Below are positions 3,775 through 22,430 of a DNA stretch of 23,484 bases, one piece after another; the stretch's first letter is position 1; every line of letters starts with the position of its first letter. The stretch comes from Nitrospirota bacterium (GTDB lineage: Bacteria > Nitrospirota > Thermodesulfovibrionia > Thermodesulfovibrionales > Dissulfurispiraceae). The stretch covers positions 1 to 23,484 of the forward strand of contig JBFLWF010000032.1 in assembly GCA_040758355.1 (NCBI GenBank), read 5' to 3'. Below the pieces are notes generated by a model. The model worked only from the letters and a program-made list of their open reading frames with translations. It was not told the DNA's origin and searched no databases. The translations under genes were made by a program, and so were the position numbers.

Positions 3775-5210
<1,436 letters not shown>

Positions 5211-6112: not shown

Positions 6113-6150
6113 ATTCCAAATCCGAATTTCGAAATTCGAATTTAGGATTT
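6111..6150. repeat. Heptamer-periodic palindrome at the cysK 3' end (possible terminator or REP-like element)
   Basis: AAATTCC AAATCCG AATTTCG AAATTCG AATTTAG GATTT, with a perfect 16-bp palindromic core CGAATTTCGAAATTCG. Confidence 0.7.
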
Positions 6151-7079
6151 CATATTCCTTCTGGTAAGAACAAGCCTGTGCTCAAATACCTGTCTCCCCT
6201 GTCCGGGAATATAACAACCAGTTTTTTGTTCTTCCCAAGCCTCTCTGCTGCCTTCATGGCAGCCCACATTGCAGCGCCAGATGATATGCCTGCGAGTATT
6301 CCTTCCTTTAAAGCCAGTTGTTTTGTCGTGTTTGCGGCATCCTCGTCCGTTACGGGTATCACTTCGTTGTATATCTTTGTATTTAAAACCCCCGGATAAA
6401 AGCCGGCGCCTATGCCTGCAATCTTGTGTTTCCCCGGATTTCCGCCAGACAGGACAGGAGAGTATGCAGGCTCCACTGCAGCTATCCATATATCAGGGTT
6501 CTTTTCCCTTAATGCCTCGCCCGTACCGGTTATAGTCCCTCCTGTTCCAACTCCGGCCACAAAGGCATCGGGCACACAGCCAAGGTCATTGATTATCTCG
6601 AGGGCGGTTGTCCGCCTGTGCATTTCCGGGTTCGCCTTGTTCTCAAACTGTTGGGGCATGAAAAAATCAGGATTGTCTCTGAATATCTCCTCTGCCCTTT
6701 CCACTGCCCCCATCATGCCTTTATCACCGGGTGTCAATATAAGCTCGGCCCCAAATGCCTGCAGCAACTGCCTCCTCTCCATGGACATGGTCTCTGGCAT
6801 TGTGAGGATGAGCCTGTATCCCTTGACAGCAGCCACCATTGCAAGGCCGATGCCGGTATTTCCGCTTGTGGGTTCAACAATAGTGCCGCCTTTGTGCAGC
6901 TTGCCTTCCCTTTCTGCTGCCTCTATCATTGAAAGGGCTATCCTGTCCTTGACAGAGCCTCCGGGGTTAAAACCCTCAAGCTTTGCCCATATCCCGGCAC
7001 TATTTGCCGAAACCATCCTGTTGATCCTGACCATCGGCGTATTGCCGATAAGACTCAGGATATTTTCATGCAGTTTCAT
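6150..7079 (-). CDS. cysK: Cysteine synthase A (O-acetylserine sulfhydrylase)
   Basis: IGNTP, NPGGSVKDR (PLP Lys), EPTSGNTG, GVGTGGT, GISSGA, FPDRGDRYLST. GGAGG RBS. Confidence 0.95.
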   Translation of the reverse strand: MKLHENILSLIGNTPMVRINRMVSANSAGIWAKLEGFNPGGSVKDRIALSMIEAAEREGKLHKGGTIVEPTSGNTGIGLAMVAAVKGYRLILTMPETMSMERRQLLQAFGAELILTPGDKGMMGAVERAEEIFRDNPDFFMPQQFENKANPEMHRRTTALEIINDLGCVPDAFVAGVGTGGTITGTGEALREKNPDIWIAAVEPAYSPVLSGGNPGKHKIAGIGAGFYPGVLNTKIYNEVIPVTDEDAANTTKQLALKEGILAGISSGAAMWAAMKAAERLGKNKKLVVIFPDRGDRYLSTGLFLPEGI

Positions 7080-7138: not shown

Positions 7139-7996
7139 ATGATAAGCTTGGGTTTTTCGCCCTGTCCCAATGACACCTTTATCTTTTATGCCCTTGCTAA
7201 TAAACGGATAGACCTGAAAGGTCTCGATTTCAGCCTCCTCATCGAGGACGTGGAGACACTGAACCAGCTTGCAATGAAAAGGGCTGTCGATGTCACAAAG
7301 ATATCATGCCATGCCTTTTATTATTTGCAGGAAGATTACCACTTTCTGAGAGCAGGAGGGGCATTCGGCCGGGGATGCGGGCCGCTCTTAGTTCAGAAGC
7401 CGGAAGTCAGTCTACAAGACCCTGTGGGAAGTCAGAAGTCAGAAATAAAAAAAATAGCGATCCCAGGCGAACTTACAACCGCATTTCTTTTATTGAAACT
7501 CTTTATCTCAGCCACCAGCCATCAGCCATCAGCCATAAGTGCTCCGCAATTCATTGCTATGCCTTTCCATGAGATCATGGGTGCGGTCAGGGATGGGAAA
7601 GTGGATGCTGGCCTCATAATACATGAAAGCAGATTCACGTACCATGAATACGGACTTGCAAAGATCGTAGACCTTGGAGATTGGTGGGAAGAGGAGACAG
7701 GACTGCCCATACCGCTCGGAGGCATAATTGCAAAGAAATCCCTCGGCCTCCAGACCATTAAAACAATTGAATCCCTCATAAGGGCGAGTGTAGAATATTC
7801 CATGCTCCACAGGGAAGATGCCATGCTGTTTATCAAAAGGTATTCACAGGAATTATCAGATGATGTAATATTTAAGCACATATCCCTTTATGTCAACGAT
7901 TACTCCGTTGATATTGGCAATAAAGGGGAAGCCGCACTCGATGAATTGATGAAAAGGGCAAGGGGTATAAAAACGATTACAAACAAGGGAGAATGA
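7139..7996 (+). CDS. mqnD: 1,4-dihydroxy-6-naphthoate synthase (futalosine menaquinone pathway)
   Basis: LGFSPCPNDTF, DVETLN, GRGCGPL, AIPGELTTA, IIHESRFTY, DLGDWWEEETGLPIPLG, HISLYVN. Start could be 7139 or 7121. Confidence 0.93.
   Translation: MISLGFSPCPNDTFIFYALANKRIDLKGLDFSLLIEDVETLNQLAMKRAVDVTKISCHAFYYLQEDYHFLRAGGAFGRGCGPLLVQKPEVSLQDPVGSQKSEIKKIAIPGELTTAFLLLKLFISATSHQPSAISAPQFIAMPFHEIMGAVRDGKVDAGLIIHESRFTYHEYGLAKIVDLGDWWEEETGLPIPLGGIIAKKSLGLQTIKTIESLIRASVEYSMLHREDAMLFIKRYSQELSDDVIFKHISLYVNDYSVDIGNKGEAALDELMKRARGIKTITNKGE
7394..7446 (+). repeat. Degenerate heptamer repeats (C/G)RGAAGT inside mqnD
   Basis: CAGAAGC CGGAAGT CAG...GGGAAGT CAGAAGT CAGAAAT. Confidence 0.7.
7508..7535 (+). repeat. 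Heptamer repeat (YCAGCCA)x4 inside mqnD
   Basis: TCAGCCA CCAGCCA TCAGCCA TCAGCCA, translated SATSHQPSAIS. Confidence 0.9.
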
Positions 7997-16769: not shown

Positions 16770-17759
16770 ATGAACAGGCGGGAATTTATAGCAGCAATGG
16801 CAGGAGGTGTAATACTAACAATGGCAGGTGGAAGACCTGTTTCAGCAACGCAATTAAAATCCCCAATGGATAAAAAAACAAAGGTATCCCTCATTAAAAC
16901 CCCTGACAGGGCTTCAGGAATAAAAAGGGCTATAGAACTCCTTGCTATAAACCCTGTAAAGGGAAAGGATGTGCTCCTCAAGCCGAACTTCAACACTGCA
17001 GACCCCTTCCCCGGCTCTACGCACAACGATACACTCATCCATTTGATATTGCACATGAAGGAGATGGGCGCCAAGAGTATCACCATAGGAGAGAGGAGCG
17101 GCCCTCCTGACACATCAGATGTTCTGAAGGAAAAAGGCATGTACGAACTCTGCAAAAAACTTGATGTTGGACTCATAAACTTCGAAGAACTCCCGCCGGA
17201 TGGATGGGTAAGGATAAGGCCTGAAAACAGCCACTGGAGAGATGGCTTTGATGTGGCAAGGCCTGTGCTTGATTCAAAGTGTATTGTATCAACATGCTGC
17301 CTCAAGACCCACGGTTACGGCGGCGTATTCACCATGTCGTTAAAACTGTCTGTAGGAGTCACTCACAAGAGGAATATGTCGGAACTCCACACATCCCTCC
17401 GGAGCATGAGGAAGATGATTGCAGAGATAAATCAGGCATACAACCCTTCATTGATACTGCTGGATGCTATAGAGGCATTTGTGGATGGAGGCCCTGCAAA
17501 GGGCACTAAAAAGAGGGCTGATGTGATAATTGCCGGAACAGACAGAATCGCCATAGATGCGGTTGGTCTGGCAGTATTGAAAGAACTTGGCAGCAACAAG
17601 GCAATAATGGAAAAGAAAATTTTTGAACAGGAACAGATAGCAAGGGCTGTTGAGCTTGGTCTTGGAGTAAAACAGCCGGGGGATATAGAGATATTAACCG
17701 ATGACAGGCATGGCAAAATATATGCTGAGCGATTGATGGAGATAATTTTGAAGGGCTGA
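16770..17759 (+). CDS. DUF362-domain protein with a twin-arginine signal peptide
   Basis: MNRREFI signal; VLLKPNF, LKTH, TMSLK, DGGP, DRIAIDAVG. GAGG RBS. Confidence 0.82.
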   Translation: MNRREFIAAMAGGVILTMAGGRPVSATQLKSPMDKKTKVSLIKTPDRASGIKRAIELLAINPVKGKDVLLKPNFNTADPFPGSTHNDTLIHLILHMKEMGAKSITIGERSGPPDTSDVLKEKGMYELCKKLDVGLINFEELPPDGWVRIRPENSHWRDGFDVARPVLDSKCIVSTCCLKTHGYGGVFTMSLKLSVGVTHKRNMSELHTSLRSMRKMIAEINQAYNPSLILLDAIEAFVDGGPAKGTKKRADVIIAGTDRIAIDAVGLAVLKELGSNKAIMEKKIFEQEQIARAVELGLGVKQPGDIEILTDDRHGKIYAERLMEIILKG

Positions 17760-17766
17760 TGAATCT

Positions 17767-18714
17767 TTATCTGAGTGCATATAATGCCTTCAATGCTATT
17801 TCTGCTGCGTCCCTTACATATTGCGTGTATTGAGATGCAAACTTATCCTCGCGGCGATTGTCAATAACAGGACATATGACACCTGCCCTGTAGCCGAGGG
17901 CGCCCATGAAATGCAGCAAAAAGCTTGCCTCCATCTCCATATTCTCTATCCTGCGTCCTTCGATGCCGGTATCTATTGATGCAATGACACCATCTATCTC
18001 AGGCACTGTCAAAGGCACTCTCGATACAACCCTGCCCTGATTTGCAAAGAACCCTGAATTGGATATGGTTATACCTCTTTTGTGCTTTATGTCGAGTCTT
18101 TGAGCCTCTCTATTTAATGCTTCAATAACATCTTTATGAGCCCTTGAGGCGTAGGGAAAGATTTTTTCTTTGAATCTTGAATTATGAGGGATAACTTCAT
18201 CGATAGTTTTTCTGATCCTATCCTCAAGCCTTTTGCAATCTTCGTCTTGATAGGGAGCATCATAAAACAATCCTGTATTATCAAGACCTACTGCGTAATC
18301 GGTTATGATAAGCGTCCCTAATTCCGTGTCAAGCTGAATGCCTCCGGAGGTGCCGATGCGGATTATGGTTATCATGTCGTATCCTGATTTTCTTTTCACG
18401 GTGTGAAAATCGATTTCATTCAAAGCAACTATCTCATTGAGCACGATCTCCATGGAAGGAGTGCCCATGCCTGATGTTATGACCGAGACCCTCTGGCCTG
18501 TCTCTTTAACCCTGCCTGTTATTGTCCTTAAACCCCTGTGGGATCTGTCGACTTCTTTTGTGTCAAAGAATTCATCTGCAATAAAAGGAACCCTTTCAGG
18601 ATCGCCGACAATAATGATGTCCCTTGCCAGTTCTTCCGGCCTTAAGTCTAAGTGATAAACCTTATCATTTATTATTGGTAAATCGGAGGTCTTGAAAGAA
18701 ATGTCATTTTTCAT
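17767..18714 (-). CDS. Uridine/nucleoside phosphorylase (PNP_UDP_1 family)
   Basis: YHLDLRPEE, VGDPERV, SGMGTPS, IRIGTSG, GFFANQGR, NMEMEAS. Confidence 0.88.
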   Translation of the reverse strand: MKNDISFKTSDLPIINDKVYHLDLRPEELARDIIIVGDPERVPFIADEFFDTKEVDRSHRGLRTITGRVKETGQRVSVITSGMGTPSMEIVLNEIVALNEIDFHTVKRKSGYDMITIIRIGTSGGIQLDTELGTLIITDYAVGLDNTGLFYDAPYQDEDCKRLEDRIRKTIDEVIPHNSRFKEKIFPYASRAHKDVIEALNREAQRLDIKHKRGITISNSGFFANQGRVVSRVPLTVPEIDGVIASIDTGIEGRRIENMEMEASFLLHFMGALGYRAGVICPVIDNRREDKFASQYTQYVRDAAEIALKALYALR

Positions 18715-18729
18715 GGGAAGCCTTTGGCA

Positions 18730-18928
18730 AATAAAAAGGTGGTGCTTGTATTCCCCTTCACCCAGTGAGTCTTTGTGACTTTACATCTTGAGACTTACAT
18801 CCTAAGACCTACATCTTACGACTTTACATCCTAAGACCTACATCTTACGACTTTACATCCTGAGACTTTACATCTTGAGACCCTGGGTAAAGAGGAGCAA
18901 GACCACCACCTCTTGAAACTCACTCTTT
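18730..18928 (-). ncRNA. Putative structured RNA or leader: long closing stem and U-tract enclosing a 7-unit repeat array
   Basis: Own promoter at 18935-18963. Arms 18883-18911 and 18737-18765 pair with G-U wobbles only on the minus strand and are followed by UUUUUAUUU. Confidence 0.65.
18777..18878. repeat. Tandem array of seven 14-15-bp units, consensus GAC(T/C)T(T)ACATC(C/T)TRM
   Basis: GACTTTACATCTTGA GACTTACATCCTAA GACCTACATCTTAC GACTTTACATCCTAA GACCTACATCTTAC GACTTTACATCCTGA GACTTTACATCTTGA. Confidence 0.95.
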
Positions 18929-18934
18929 GATTAA

Positions 18935-18963
18935 ACCATATACCCTTTTAATGTGTTTGTCAA
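18935..18963 (-). promoter_or_regulatory. sigma70-type promoter driving the repeat RNA and the nucleoside phosphorylase
   Basis: TTGACA-17nt-TATGGT on the minus strand. Confidence 0.7.
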
Positions 18964-18990
18964 GAACTTTTTTTAAGGGCAAAATTTAAA

Positions 18991-19024: not shown

Positions 19025-19918
19025 ATGGACCTGCTTTTAAAGGGAATGACAAAGGGAGAACCGCTGTTAGTAATCGGGCTTGTTGATACAGAGACTGTTG
19101 AAAAGGCGAGGATTATTCACGATACCTATCCAACTGTGTCTGCAGCCTTTGGCCGTATGATAAGCGGGGCAATTCTTCTTTCCTCTCTTCTCAAGGAAGG
19201 GCAGAAGGTAATTCTTCAGGTAATAGGCGACGGCCCTCTAAAAGAGGTCGTTGCTGAGGCAGACTGGCTCTGCAGAGTGAGGGGCTATGTTAAAGAACCG
19301 CATATTCACCTCGGACTTAAGGGCGGTAAGCTTGATGTTGGAAGGGCTATTGGAAATGGAATCTTGAATGTGATAAAAGACCTCGGTCTAAGGGAATATT
19401 ACCATGGAAGCGTCCTATTGCAAACAGGCGAGATTGCCACTGACCTTGCATATTATTTCAAGGTCTCCGAACAGATACCTGCTGCAGTCTCACTCGGGGT
19501 ATATGTTGATACGGACAATTCTGTGAAGGCATCCGGCGGATTCATGATTCATGCCCTGCCCGGTGTAAGCGAGGAGACAATAGAATATCTGGAAGAAAGA
19601 TTGAAGGGGCTTCGCACGGTAAGTTCCATGATCCTAAATGGTCTCGGCCCAAAAGAGATAATAGAAGAGGCTGTTGGCCTTCCCCTTGATATCATTGACA
19701 GGAAAGAAGTCTTTTATTACTGTCCATGCAATAAAGACAGGGTCATGGATACAATAGTAGCCCTCGGCAAAAGGGATATTAAAGATCTTGTCGAAAAAGG
19801 GGAGACCGTAAATGTCATGTGCCGGTTCTGTAAGACAGGATATGCTGTTTCACGGGAAGACCTGATATCCATTTTAGAAACCATGGATTCTAAGGATAAA
19901 CAAACAAACATGTTGTAA
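19025..19918 (+). CDS. hslO: Hsp33 redox-regulated chaperone
   Basis: GDGPL, VIKDLGLRE.Y.G, GEIATDLAYYF..SEQIP, and the C-terminal CPC...CRFC zinc motif. Confidence 0.94.
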   Translation: MDLLLKGMTKGEPLLVIGLVDTETVEKARIIHDTYPTVSAAFGRMISGAILLSSLLKEGQKVILQVIGDGPLKEVVAEADWLCRVRGYVKEPHIHLGLKGGKLDVGRAIGNGILNVIKDLGLREYYHGSVLLQTGEIATDLAYYFKVSEQIPAAVSLGVYVDTDNSVKASGGFMIHALPGVSEETIEYLEERLKGLRTVSSMILNGLGPKEIIEEAVGLPLDIIDRKEVFYYCPCNKDRVMDTIVALGKRDIKDLVEKGETVNVMCRFCKTGYAVSREDLISILETMDSKDKQTNML

Positions 19919-20784: not shown

Positions 20785-21651
20785 GTGTTATTGATTGTTC
20801 ATGGCGGTGCAGGAGAAAGAAAGCCAACGGAAAAGGCATTAAAGAAGCTTTCTGAATCCCTTTCATCCGGATACGAAATATTGGGCAATGGCGGGACTGC
20901 CCTCGATGCAGTGGTCAAATCAATAACCATCCTTGAAGACTCCGGACTTTTTAATGCAGGCTCCGGAGGAAACCTGCAGTTCGATGGTGTCAGGCGCCTT
21001 GATGCATCCATTATGAATGGGAAGGATTTAAAAACAGGCTCGGTAATAGGTGTTGAAGGAATAAAGAATCCCATTAAGCTAACAAGGATTATAATGGACA
21101 TGCCCCATGTAATGCTGACAAATGTAGGAGCACGAAGGATTGCTGATGCGCACAACCTTGAGCCTCTGCCAAAACCAGACAGAGATTCATTGGAGATTCT
21201 CAAGAAGATAAAGAAAAAAGAAAAGGAAATGGTTCGTATTTATAAAAAGTATTTTTCAACAGTCGGCGCAGTCGCCCTCGACAAATACGGCAACCTTGCA
21301 GCAGGCTCATCAACAGGAGGAATAGCAGCAATGCTCCACGGCAGGGTGGGCGACACGCCTATCATCGGAGCAGGTACATACGCAGAAAACTCATTTGGTG
21401 CTGTTTCATGCACAGGCAAAGGAGAGTTTATAATCAGGCTTTCACTCGCAAAAGAGATATGCATGAACCTGAAAAGAATGTCTCCTCTTAAGGCAGCGCA
21501 ATTTTCCTTAAAAAGGCTTTCTAAAATAGGCGGCAAGGCAGGCGTTATCGTGATAAATAAAAAAGGACAATTCACAATACTGCATTCAACAAGATACATG
21601 GCATCGGGGTATGTGAATGCAAAGGGGATTGTGGTGAAGATACAATCTTAA
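20785..21651 (+). CDS. Isoaspartyl peptidase / L-asparaginase (type 2, Ntn hydrolase)
   Basis: IVHGGAG, FNAGSG, LDASIM, S|TVGAVALD (Thr nucleophile), STGG, GRVGDTPIIGAG, SCTGKGE. GTG start after GAGG. Confidence 0.93.
   Translation: MLLIVHGGAGERKPTEKALKKLSESLSSGYEILGNGGTALDAVVKSITILEDSGLFNAGSGGNLQFDGVRRLDASIMNGKDLKTGSVIGVEGIKNPIKLTRIIMDMPHVMLTNVGARRIADAHNLEPLPKPDRDSLEILKKIKKKEKEMVRIYKKYFSTVGAVALDKYGNLAAGSSTGGIAAMLHGRVGDTPIIGAGTYAENSFGAVSCTGKGEFIIRLSLAKEICMNLKRMSPLKAAQFSLKRLSKIGGKAGVIVINKKGQFTILHSTRYMASGYVNAKGIVVKIQS
21577..21639 (+). repeat. Direct repeat copy 1 (3' end of the asparaginase gene)
   Basis: About 52/63 identical to 22345-22406 by manual alignment. Confidence 0.85.
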
Positions 21652-21652
21652 A

Positions 21653-22018
21653 TTAAATTGCCACTTCAAGTGCTATTTTGTCATAACTCACATGAGGAAT
21701 CTTCTTATCTTTTGTTTCTGTTATCTCCACAAGTCCGAGTTCCTGAAGATATGTCAAATCCTGCAAGACATTTTTGATATCCCTGTTAACCATCTTGGCA
21801 AGCTCGTACACTGATGCAGGCTTTTTGTCTTTAATTGTCTTCAGAAGTTCCAAACGTCTTTCGGTAAGGACTTTTCTCATCTCTTTGAGATTGCTGAAAT
21901 ATATTGCCGTCTTTTTCTGGACATGCTCGTCCCTTGAAAGTTTCTCAAAGACCTCTCCAGCCTCTTTTAAGGCATCGTTAAGGCTTTTTATCTCTATTTT
22001 GACCCTCTTAATCTTCAT
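21653..22018 (-). CDS. Winged-HTH DNA-binding protein, putative antitoxin (HVO_A0114-like)
   Basis: KVLTERRLELLKTI...PASVYELAKMVNRDIKNV..DL..L.ELGLV. Start at ATG 22018 after GGAGGTG; overlaps the partner gene's stop. Confidence 0.8.
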   Translation of the reverse strand: MKIKRVKIEIKSLNDALKEAGEVFEKLSRDEHVQKKTAIYFSNLKEMRKVLTERRLELLKTIKDKKPASVYELAKMVNRDIKNVLQDLTYLQELGLVEITETKDKKIPHVSYDKIALEVAI

Positions 22019-22301
22019 CCCATTCACCTCCTCTTATTTTCTTCAAATCCTTTTTAAAATCTCTTATCAAATCCCATATAGTATCGAACCTATATGGCCC
22101 TTCATTGCCTCCATAATGCCTGTGGTCTCCCTTTCCTTCAGCATTGTCATAACCAAGGAGCCTTTTCCCATCCTTAATATAGACTATGGAGTATTTAATC
22201 CCGTGCGGCTTATCCTCCGACCTCGGAACCTGCCATATCTTGATTTCTACAATCTCGTCTCCCTTGACTTCCTTGGTATGGAGGACTTTCATAGCCTTCA
22301 T
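22008..22301 (-). CDS. DUF6516-like small protein, putative toxin
   Basis: VEIKIWQVP...KPHGIKYSI...GKRLLGYDNAEGKGDHRH...PYRF...LIRDF. Start at ATG 22301. Confidence 0.78.
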   Translation of the reverse strand: MKAMKVLHTKEVKGDEIVEIKIWQVPRSEDKPHGIKYSIVYIKDGKRLLGYDNAEGKGDHRHYGGNEGPYRFDTIWDLIRDFKKDLKKIRGGEWDED

Positions 22302-22308
22302 AGTAGGT

Positions 22309-22337
22309 ATTATATACCCACTAAAGAAATTATGCAA
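22309..22337 (-). promoter_or_regulatory. sigma70 promoter of the TA-like operon, leaderless configuration
   Basis: TTGCAT-17nt-TATAAT, with ATG 7 nt after the -10 box. Confidence 0.75.
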
Positions 22338-22344
22338 AACTTAC

Positions 22345-22430
22345 GTACTACATCCAACAAACACATGGCATCAGGCTATGCAAATGAGAAGGGGATTGTG
22401 GTGAAGGAAGGGGTAAGATTGGCAACTTAG
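22345..22430 (+). pseudogene. Orphaned duplicate 3' end of the asparaginase gene (direct repeat copy 2)
   Basis: Reads VLHPT/(1-nt gap)/HMASGYANEKGIVVKEGVRLAT*, versus ILHSTRYMASGYVNAKGIVVKIQS* in the intact gene. Confidence 0.8.

Follow-up and report, generated by a model that had tools for sequence, protein, structure and literature searches.

Repeat-rod RNA: an apparently undescribed RNA family of the Thermodesulfovibrionales and a candidate multivalent protein-titrating RNA

Multivalent small RNAs that titrate proteins are, to our knowledge, known from few protein partners. CsrB, RsmY and RsmZ are paralogous, free-standing sponges whose binding sites are GGA hairpin loops. In ToxI arrays and TRAP-type leaders, a promoter is followed by the repeats, a terminator and a coding sequence. 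According to PMC11697453, the paralogous FopS sRNAs of Bacteroides are bound by the RRM protein RbpB; the FopS RNAs work through a pairing seed, and RbpB shows a preference for regions that are single-stranded.

The element described here, repeat-rod RNA, is a new family within a known general class, the multicopy protein-binding sRNAs, but its build is unusual and no tested family fits. It resembles CsrB, RsmY and RsmZ in being free-standing and paralogous, with its own promoter and terminator and a variable number of short sites, but these sites are GAY/GUC helices within a predicted rod rather than the GGA hairpin loops of CsrB and RsmZ. With 6S RNA, the RNA-polymerase decoy (SsrS, RF00013), it has in common a closed rod, a similar size and, as far as the accessory 6S RNAs are concerned, a promoter signature and often the locus; unlike 6S, it has no central bubble, no 6S sequence elements and no match to the model. 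Within the window the order promoter, repeats, terminator, coding sequence recalls the type III antitoxin ToxI and TRAP-type leaders, although no toxin family lies downstream, no downstream gene is fixed and the repeats sit inside the terminator stem. Like the FopS family, it is a lineage-restricted multicopy sRNA family, here with RRM proteins encoded in 30 of 32 carrier genomes; it differs in being almost fully paired by prediction, and RRM binding is a candidate property.

The window, that is, the whole stretch of DNA analysed, is 23,484 nucleotides long and comes from a genome of 2.77 Mb (99% complete; G000) that has a single copy of repeat-rod RNA. The features of this copy and its immediate neighbours are as follows.

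18968..18974, minus strand: A-tract, UP-element-like, upstream of the -35 box
18958..18963, minus strand: -35 hexamer TTGACA, conserved family-wide
18935..18940, minus strand: -10 hexamer TATGGT, 17 nt from the -35 box, with a purine block before it and AATYAAG after it (the family promoter signature)
18912..18928, minus strand: purine-rich 5' leader; putative transcript start 6-7 nt past the -10 box
18889..18928, minus strand: P0, an alternative hairpin of leader and 5' arm, predicted at -12.5 kcal/mol and exclusive of the closing stem
18883..18911, minus strand: 5' arm of the closing stem, pairing with the 3' arm
18777..18881, minus strand: array of seven GAU-GUA(A/G)(A)-GUC units, predicted to form a rod by inter-unit pairing
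18820..18830, minus strand: apical hairpin GAU-GUAAA-GUC; the family form is mostly GAC-GUAA(A/G)A-GUC
18737..18765, minus strand: 3' arm of the closing stem, pairing with the 5' arm
18729..18737, minus strand: U-tract U5-A-U3, which makes the closing stem a putative intrinsic terminator
17767..18714, minus strand: uridine-phosphorylase-like gene (Pfam match PNP_UDP_1 only), starting 15 nt past the U-tract, with an SD-like AAAGG at 18725-18721
19025..19918, plus strand: hslO (Hsp33), divergent, a local neighbour only

A preliminary description of this DNA had read a TTGACA-17-TATGGT promoter on the minus strand, and it is present base for base. A promoter-pattern scan of the window gives three sites against 6.7 expected by chance and is on its own no evidence; support for the promoter comes from its conservation, TTGACA being kept upstream of 55 of the 56 loci found by the model. 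The closing stem of 14 contiguous base pairs (two of them U-G), then 4, then 8, and the U-tract were confirmed where the same description had placed them, and so were the seven repeat units, which lie on the minus strand at 18874, 18859, 18844, 18830, 18815, 18801 and 18787 and have the loops GUAAA (four units), GUAG (two) and GUAA (one). TRF assigns the array a period of 15, 7.2 copies and a score of 119, which puts it with the top-scoring arrays of the window. The copy is an extreme of its family, with seven units against five in the sister species, because of one exact 29-nt tandem duplication inside the array (18795-18823 / 18824-18852); among the closest relatives the unit number runs 7, 5, 5, 5, 5, 4 and 2. 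A scan of the stretch against Rfam 15 at E<=5 found no match, as had been predicted.

The minus strand of the element folds at -85.6 kcal/mol (z -9.0) and the plus strand at -50.7 kcal/mol (z -3.4), neither value being equalled by any of 200 shuffles. The sense strand is also the more stable one in 106 of 111 family members and in 99 of 100 metagenome members, which bears out the strand-specific RNA structure proposed earlier.

Homologues were gathered by a BLAST search of 61 relatives, which gave 13 loci, the window's included, with promoter, stem and U-tract by inspection. A covariance model built from nine of these (R1) finds repeat-rod RNA in 32 of the 151 genomes of the order Thermodesulfovibrionales, with one to six copies each, and a second model (R2), built from a 22-member alignment, finds it in 33 of 151. 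For statistics, 128 loci were reduced to 111 members by removing 14 duplicates and three loci without an assignable stem or promoter. A GTDB-wide pattern scan returned at least 123 stretches; among the matches listed, the model scored 99 of 99 with Nitrospirota titles and none of 24 others, the lineage being assigned by the titles, which read Thermodesulfovibrionales, Dissulfurispiraceae, Ca. Sulfobium and similar. A metagenome scan added 121 further stretches, 100 of them distinct, which may share members with the GTDB set. Repeat-rod RNA was found in none of 124 genomes of other Nitrospirota families, in none of 151 genomes of the phylum of locus L185 (a search without an internal positive control), and not in viral contigs, plasmids or phages.

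The homologues keep the promoter, the closing stem, the GAY/GUC repeat motif and the U-tract; the stem shows compensatory changes and the repeat number varies. TTGACA lies upstream of 92 of the 97 metagenome members in which this was testable, the search pattern itself being free of TTGACA, and in the A-tract positions -8, -7, -6 and -4 are A in 71-79% (111 members). At L005, L006, L038, L062, L065, L084 and L129, which are unrelated loci, IS-like ends of two kinds lie 0-30 nt upstream of the RNA promoter, and at L065 the end of the element itself supplies TTGACA. At L093, L095, L157 and L170 two copies of different subtype stand in tandem, and each has a promoter to itself; at L157 a 6S-like RNA follows the pair, so that three ncRNA genes stand in a row. 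The RNA gene family is real, belongs to a single order of anaerobic Nitrospirota and is apparently undescribed: in the literature on small RNAs of the lineage no description of such an RNA was found, although supplements outside that search may bear on novelty. The main text of PMC8632094 and of PMC11109978 has no term Nitrospira or Thermodesulfovibrio; their supplements may still list the motif.

The repeat units had been thought to form independent mini-hairpins, but the 3-bp hairpins would cost +0.7 to +1.0 kcal/mol and have a pair probability of 0.000 in the full window RNA fold, except for unit 4, the predicted apex of the rod (0.98-1.0). The units are self-complementary and therefore pair with one another, and covariation supports the predicted single long rod, made up of short GAY/GUC helices and of internal loops that are small and almost symmetric. 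In an alignment of 28 members, all of the commonest subtype, 93.6% of the cells of the rod are paired and 17 of 41 pairs show two-sided change, in a sample of kin that are not independent and with a structure derived from the same sequences; none of 500 shuffles comes as high, and slid controls reach 35-53% paired. The motif helices (helices 4-6 of the rod) are conserved in sequence with little covariation, a pattern typical of protein sites and counted here for the protein-binding reading. Single rods are predicted for 82 of the 111 members and branched folds with the same hairpin motif for the other 29, and many members have only one to three motif copies, observations that weigh against a multivalent titrating RNA. 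Among 203 members the commonest apical loops are GUAAAA, GUAAGA, GUAAAAA and GAUUA, closed by GAY/GUC pairs; family comparison places GUA(A) and UCA(R) in the rod loops beside the GAY/GUC helices and GUAA(A/G)A in the cap. The same unit thus either caps a hairpin or sits in the rod, so that the register given in the preliminary description is right locally: the repeated unit is a GAY/GUC helix that lies between GUA and UCA.

A feature that had been missed is the pairing of the leader, about 19 nt long, with the 5' arm, in competition with the 3' arm. The true leader pairs better than its own shuffles in 99 of 111 members (median z -1.8) and in 90 of 91 metagenome members, and better than the promoter spacer in 96 of 108. 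In reciprocal swaps between members with different arms the cognate leader is favoured in 71% of 2254 pairs, by a mean of -2.4 kcal/mol; the one-sided form of this test is weak, with a median rank of 0.41 and 12 of 111 members in the top decile. Prediction and comparison agree that P0 and the closing stem are mutually exclusive. In prefix folding P0 is predicted to persist to about nt 170 and then to be displaced by the 3' arm, the closed form being 16 kcal/mol more stable than the best fold that keeps P0. The hairpin is preserved to the same degree before convergent genes (18 of 20, median z -1.56), same-strand genes (18 of 21, -1.45) and 6S RNAs (8 of 8, -1.4). Since P0 is kept equally well in the convergent copies, it points to a role in folding, not to attenuation alone; alternative 5' hairpins serve such a role in the SRP precursor and in type I toxin mRNAs. 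A reading frame from a GUG in the stem runs for 3 to more than 40 codons (13 codons in 31 of 111 members, open in 10) and is unconserved as a leader peptide, and start-stop mini-ORFs in the RNA are not conserved.

The flanks of the loci bear on whether the element is a cis leader of the nucleoside phosphorylase, as had been suggested. Long flanks were available for 60 loci. The first ORF with a Pfam match on the downstream side shares the strand of the RNA at 27 of these and converges on it at 22, and there is none at 11; the phosphorylase is downstream in three, and the downstream genes span more than 20 unrelated Pfam families. No protein family is a conserved neighbour on either side, the most frequent one occurring in five loci. 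In genome G002 the RNA is intact and the phosphorylase was not found, just a remnant of the gene start. Comparison thus speaks for a free-standing gene with its own conserved sigma70-type promoter, and the phosphorylase is a local passenger, probably fed by read-through. The layout of a type III toxin-antitoxin locus fares no better, there being no constant downstream gene and no type III toxin family in the Pfam matches of 96 downstream ORFs. The block of RNA, phosphorylase and DUF362 gene (window 16770-18963) recurs at L004 in a genome of another genus (G016), with the RNA 93-96% and the phosphorylase 82% identical, and the phosphorylase was not found in three genomes of the window's own genus; horizontal transfer of the block is possible.

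Elsewhere in the window, on the minus strand, lie a TumE-like / HVO_A0114-like toxin-antitoxin pair (21653-22337) and an IS256-family (Mutator) transposase (184-1488) with imperfect terminal inverted repeats at 133-165 and 1451-1483. The toxin-antitoxin pair is bracketed by a 44-nt direct repeat (21596-21639 / 22363-22406) that copies the 3' end of an asparaginase gene, in the manner of an insertion. There are 7-nt tandem repeats at 1595-1630, 4555-4583, 6123-6151 and 7508-7536, one of them in frame in a truA-like ORF.

Also missed had been a link with accessory 6S RNA. In 8 of 111 members a 6S-like RNA stands directly past the U-tract, and there the U run averages 4.4, against 5.9 in the 102 members that no 6S follows. 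Among 100 metagenome members, seven have one on the downstream side at a distance of 5-95 nt; some 92% of copies stand without a 6S neighbour. The abutting RNAs score 30-41 bits against RF00013, below the cut-off of 46.4, and possess the conserved core; more distant accessory relatives score 47-49 bits. Of 18 loci examined for full-length matches to the accessory subfamily, in a search whose query came from a tandem locus, 11 abut repeat-rod RNA, two lie within 500 nt of one and five stand alone; none of 12 more distant accessory loci has one. Abutting copies have no room for a promoter of their own. Stand-alone accessory 6S genes (19) have the promoter signature and first bases of the repeat-rod family, with a median score of +3.6 against -20.1 for 92 TTGACA-17-TAnnnT sites of G000, a control that includes non-promoters; three of the 19 are exceptions at -14 to -32, and primary 6S genes are without the signature. 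No homology of the two RNAs beyond promoter and first bases was detected. At least two 6S matches occur in 18 of 32 carriers against 35 of 119 other genomes of the order, all five genomes with three or four matches are carriers, and the accessory subfamily is found in 16 of 32 carriers against 14 of 119 others; here as in every carrier count the genomes are related, so that co-occurrence is overstated. PMC10578484 describes the possession of two 6S paralogues as something unusual for bacteria.

The window copy has no adjacent 6S, and its genome has two 6S genes elsewhere, together with SRP and tmRNA genes. The second 6S is divergent (34 bits; G000:C9:93834-94025, L033:1501-1692), its signature score is -13, TTGACA-17-TATTCT lies upstream and the gene ends about 55 nt before a 16S rRNA gene. 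No group of G000 promoters clearly has the family signature; the best other site scores 4.5 and precedes what we take to be the structured, c-di-AMP (ydaO)-like riboswitch leader of a Kup-like gene (G000:C1, minus strand from 81796). At L312, L314 and L318 a conserved rod of about 115 nt lies just 3' of a stand-alone accessory 6S; it has no Rfam match and, by models R1 and R2, is unrelated to repeat-rod RNA.

Two rival readings also touch on 6S RNA. In a protein-sensing attenuator, P0 would act as an antiterminator, and the binding of a protein by the repeats would settle whether transcription terminates or reads through, into the accessory 6S in the ancestral arrangement and into the phosphorylase in the window. 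The predicted exclusivity of P0 and closing stem, the promoterless 6S copies behind a shortened U-tract and the short distance to the phosphorylase start all suit such a device, but it sits poorly with the 22 of 60 loci that face a convergent gene with P0 equally well kept, with the stability of the closed fold and with the lack of a consistent downstream class; we regard it as doubtful. The other reading is a decoy that captures RNA polymerase or a factor associated with it, and that either derives from accessory 6S RNA or acts together with it. This would account for the common promoter signature and transcript start, for the tandem, spaced and convergent arrangements with accessory 6S genes and for the co-occurrence in genomes. 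Yet the RNA matches neither RF00013 nor the accessory 6S profile, lacks a central bubble (the longest one-strand internal loop has a median of 5 nt and reaches 12 or more in 6 of 111 members), and in G000 stands apart from both 6S genes; antisense pairing of its 5' arm with 6S is no better than with shuffles (p 0.08-0.85). This reading is given little probability.

The remaining readings rest on the multicopy character of the family or on its sites. An Hfq-type base-pairing sRNA with the free 5' leader as seed, comparable to other paralogous sRNA families, would fit the copy number and the terminator with its U-tail, and Hfq is encoded in five of five genomes tested; as two of these are non-carriers, that presence is uninformative, the leader is variable and changes together with the 5' arm of the same RNA, and the conserved sequence lies inside the rod, so a seed-pairing function seems very improbable. 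Up to six copies per genome, patchy presence, tandem pairs and IS ends just upstream at several loci could suggest a selfish repeat or MITE. What makes this harder still to believe is the single copy in G000, a promoter that lies outside the inverted repeat and yet travels with the RNA, strand-asymmetric folding, flanks that are orthologous across genera and the absence from phage, plasmid and viral collections; ISL3-like ends with an 8-bp duplication occur in 0 of 111 members, and flanking 8-bp direct repeats number 2 against 2.7 expected. Least credible, and close to dismissal, is a CsrB/RsmZ-type CsrA sponge. G000 does have CsrA, and three units of the window read (C/U)AGGAUG, which we assume to resemble the CsrB repeat and count in its favour; but CsrA is encoded by just 8 of 32 carriers against 59 of 119 others, which leaves 24 carriers without it and also disposes of CsrA as a general ligand. 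Moreover, 63 of 111 members have no or one interior GGA, GGA is paired in the predicted rod, and FliW is encoded next to csrA in G000.

Several further candidate partners were rejected. SpoVG is found in 0 of 151 genomes of the order, and the Ro60/TROVE ligand of bacterial Y RNA (PF05731) was not found in the 99% complete G000. For a SelB/SECIS decoy, the presence of SelA in 141 of 151 genomes is uninformative for that very reason, and the carriers G111 (99% complete) and G171 (77%) are without SelA; a listing of SECIS hairpins gives three convincing selenoprotein sites, presumably formate dehydrogenase-, SelD- and rhodanese-like by motif, whose hairpins are unlike the repeat motif. A mimic of CRISPR repeats finds no counterpart in the single array found in G000 (G000:C28:20385-20779, seven repeats of about 36 nt), the repeat of which is unrelated. 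Identity with SRP RNA is rejected as well: the element has no RF00169 match, and the SRP gene of G000 is on another contig.

The hosts mostly lack CsrA and have no SpoVG; one would therefore expect the ligand to be a global regulator that has escaped recognition, or else a known one put to a new use. The best lead, and it is a lead only, is an RRM protein of the RbpA/B-like type. RRM_1 is present in 30 of 32 carriers against 75 of 119 other genomes of the order (again related genomes), and an RRM gene is divergently adjacent to repeat-rod RNA at L046 and L060. Against this lead, visual inspection of the upstream regions of 13 RRM genes revealed no copy of the motif, and scanning G000 for the motif yielded no target leaders that were convincing. 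U1A on PIE RNA is a precedent for several RRM proteins on a rod with symmetric repeated loops.

The reading that we favour, at somewhat better than even confidence, is that repeat-rod RNA is an RNA of about 190 nt, probably abundant, that titrates a protein multivalently and is co-regulated with accessory 6S RNA. The earlier suggestion of a protein-sponge sRNA or multivalent leader thus survives in its first half, a multivalent protein-binding sRNA being the best reading, and not in its second, given the convergent loci. Comparison of the homologues carries the transcription unit, the strand-specific rod, the variable motif number, the alternative leader hairpin and the association with accessory 6S; we infer that the RNA is highly expressed and terminates at the U-tract, that some transcription continues into the phosphorylase or 6S, and that the RNA titrates a protein. 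During transcription P0 would hold the 5' arm while the repeats zip into the rod, and the 3' arm would then oust the leader from the inside out, so that transcription would end with the RNA closed into a rod that resists nucleases. This rod would present one site two to seven times, the dose being adjusted through slippage and through the number of gene copies, and would titrate a cellular RNA-binding protein. It would belong to the same expression programme as the accessory 6S RNAs of the order, with co-transcription through a weakened U-tract in some genomes.

An unlikely but more far-reaching version makes repeat-rod RNA a second class of transcription-decoy RNA paired with accessory 6S, in which the slippage-tuned rod would bind several copies of a protein of transcription or RNA handling and a leader/terminator switch would couple occupancy of the sites to release of the downstream 6S. 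For the favoured multivalent titrating RNA, the family would offer a multicopy set with a site geometry different from that of the known titrating sRNAs, and its naturally occurring 2-, 5- and 7-site forms make it possible to test valency directly. Its connection with accessory 6S RNA, in turn, may help to explain why more than one 6S RNA is retained in some bacteria.
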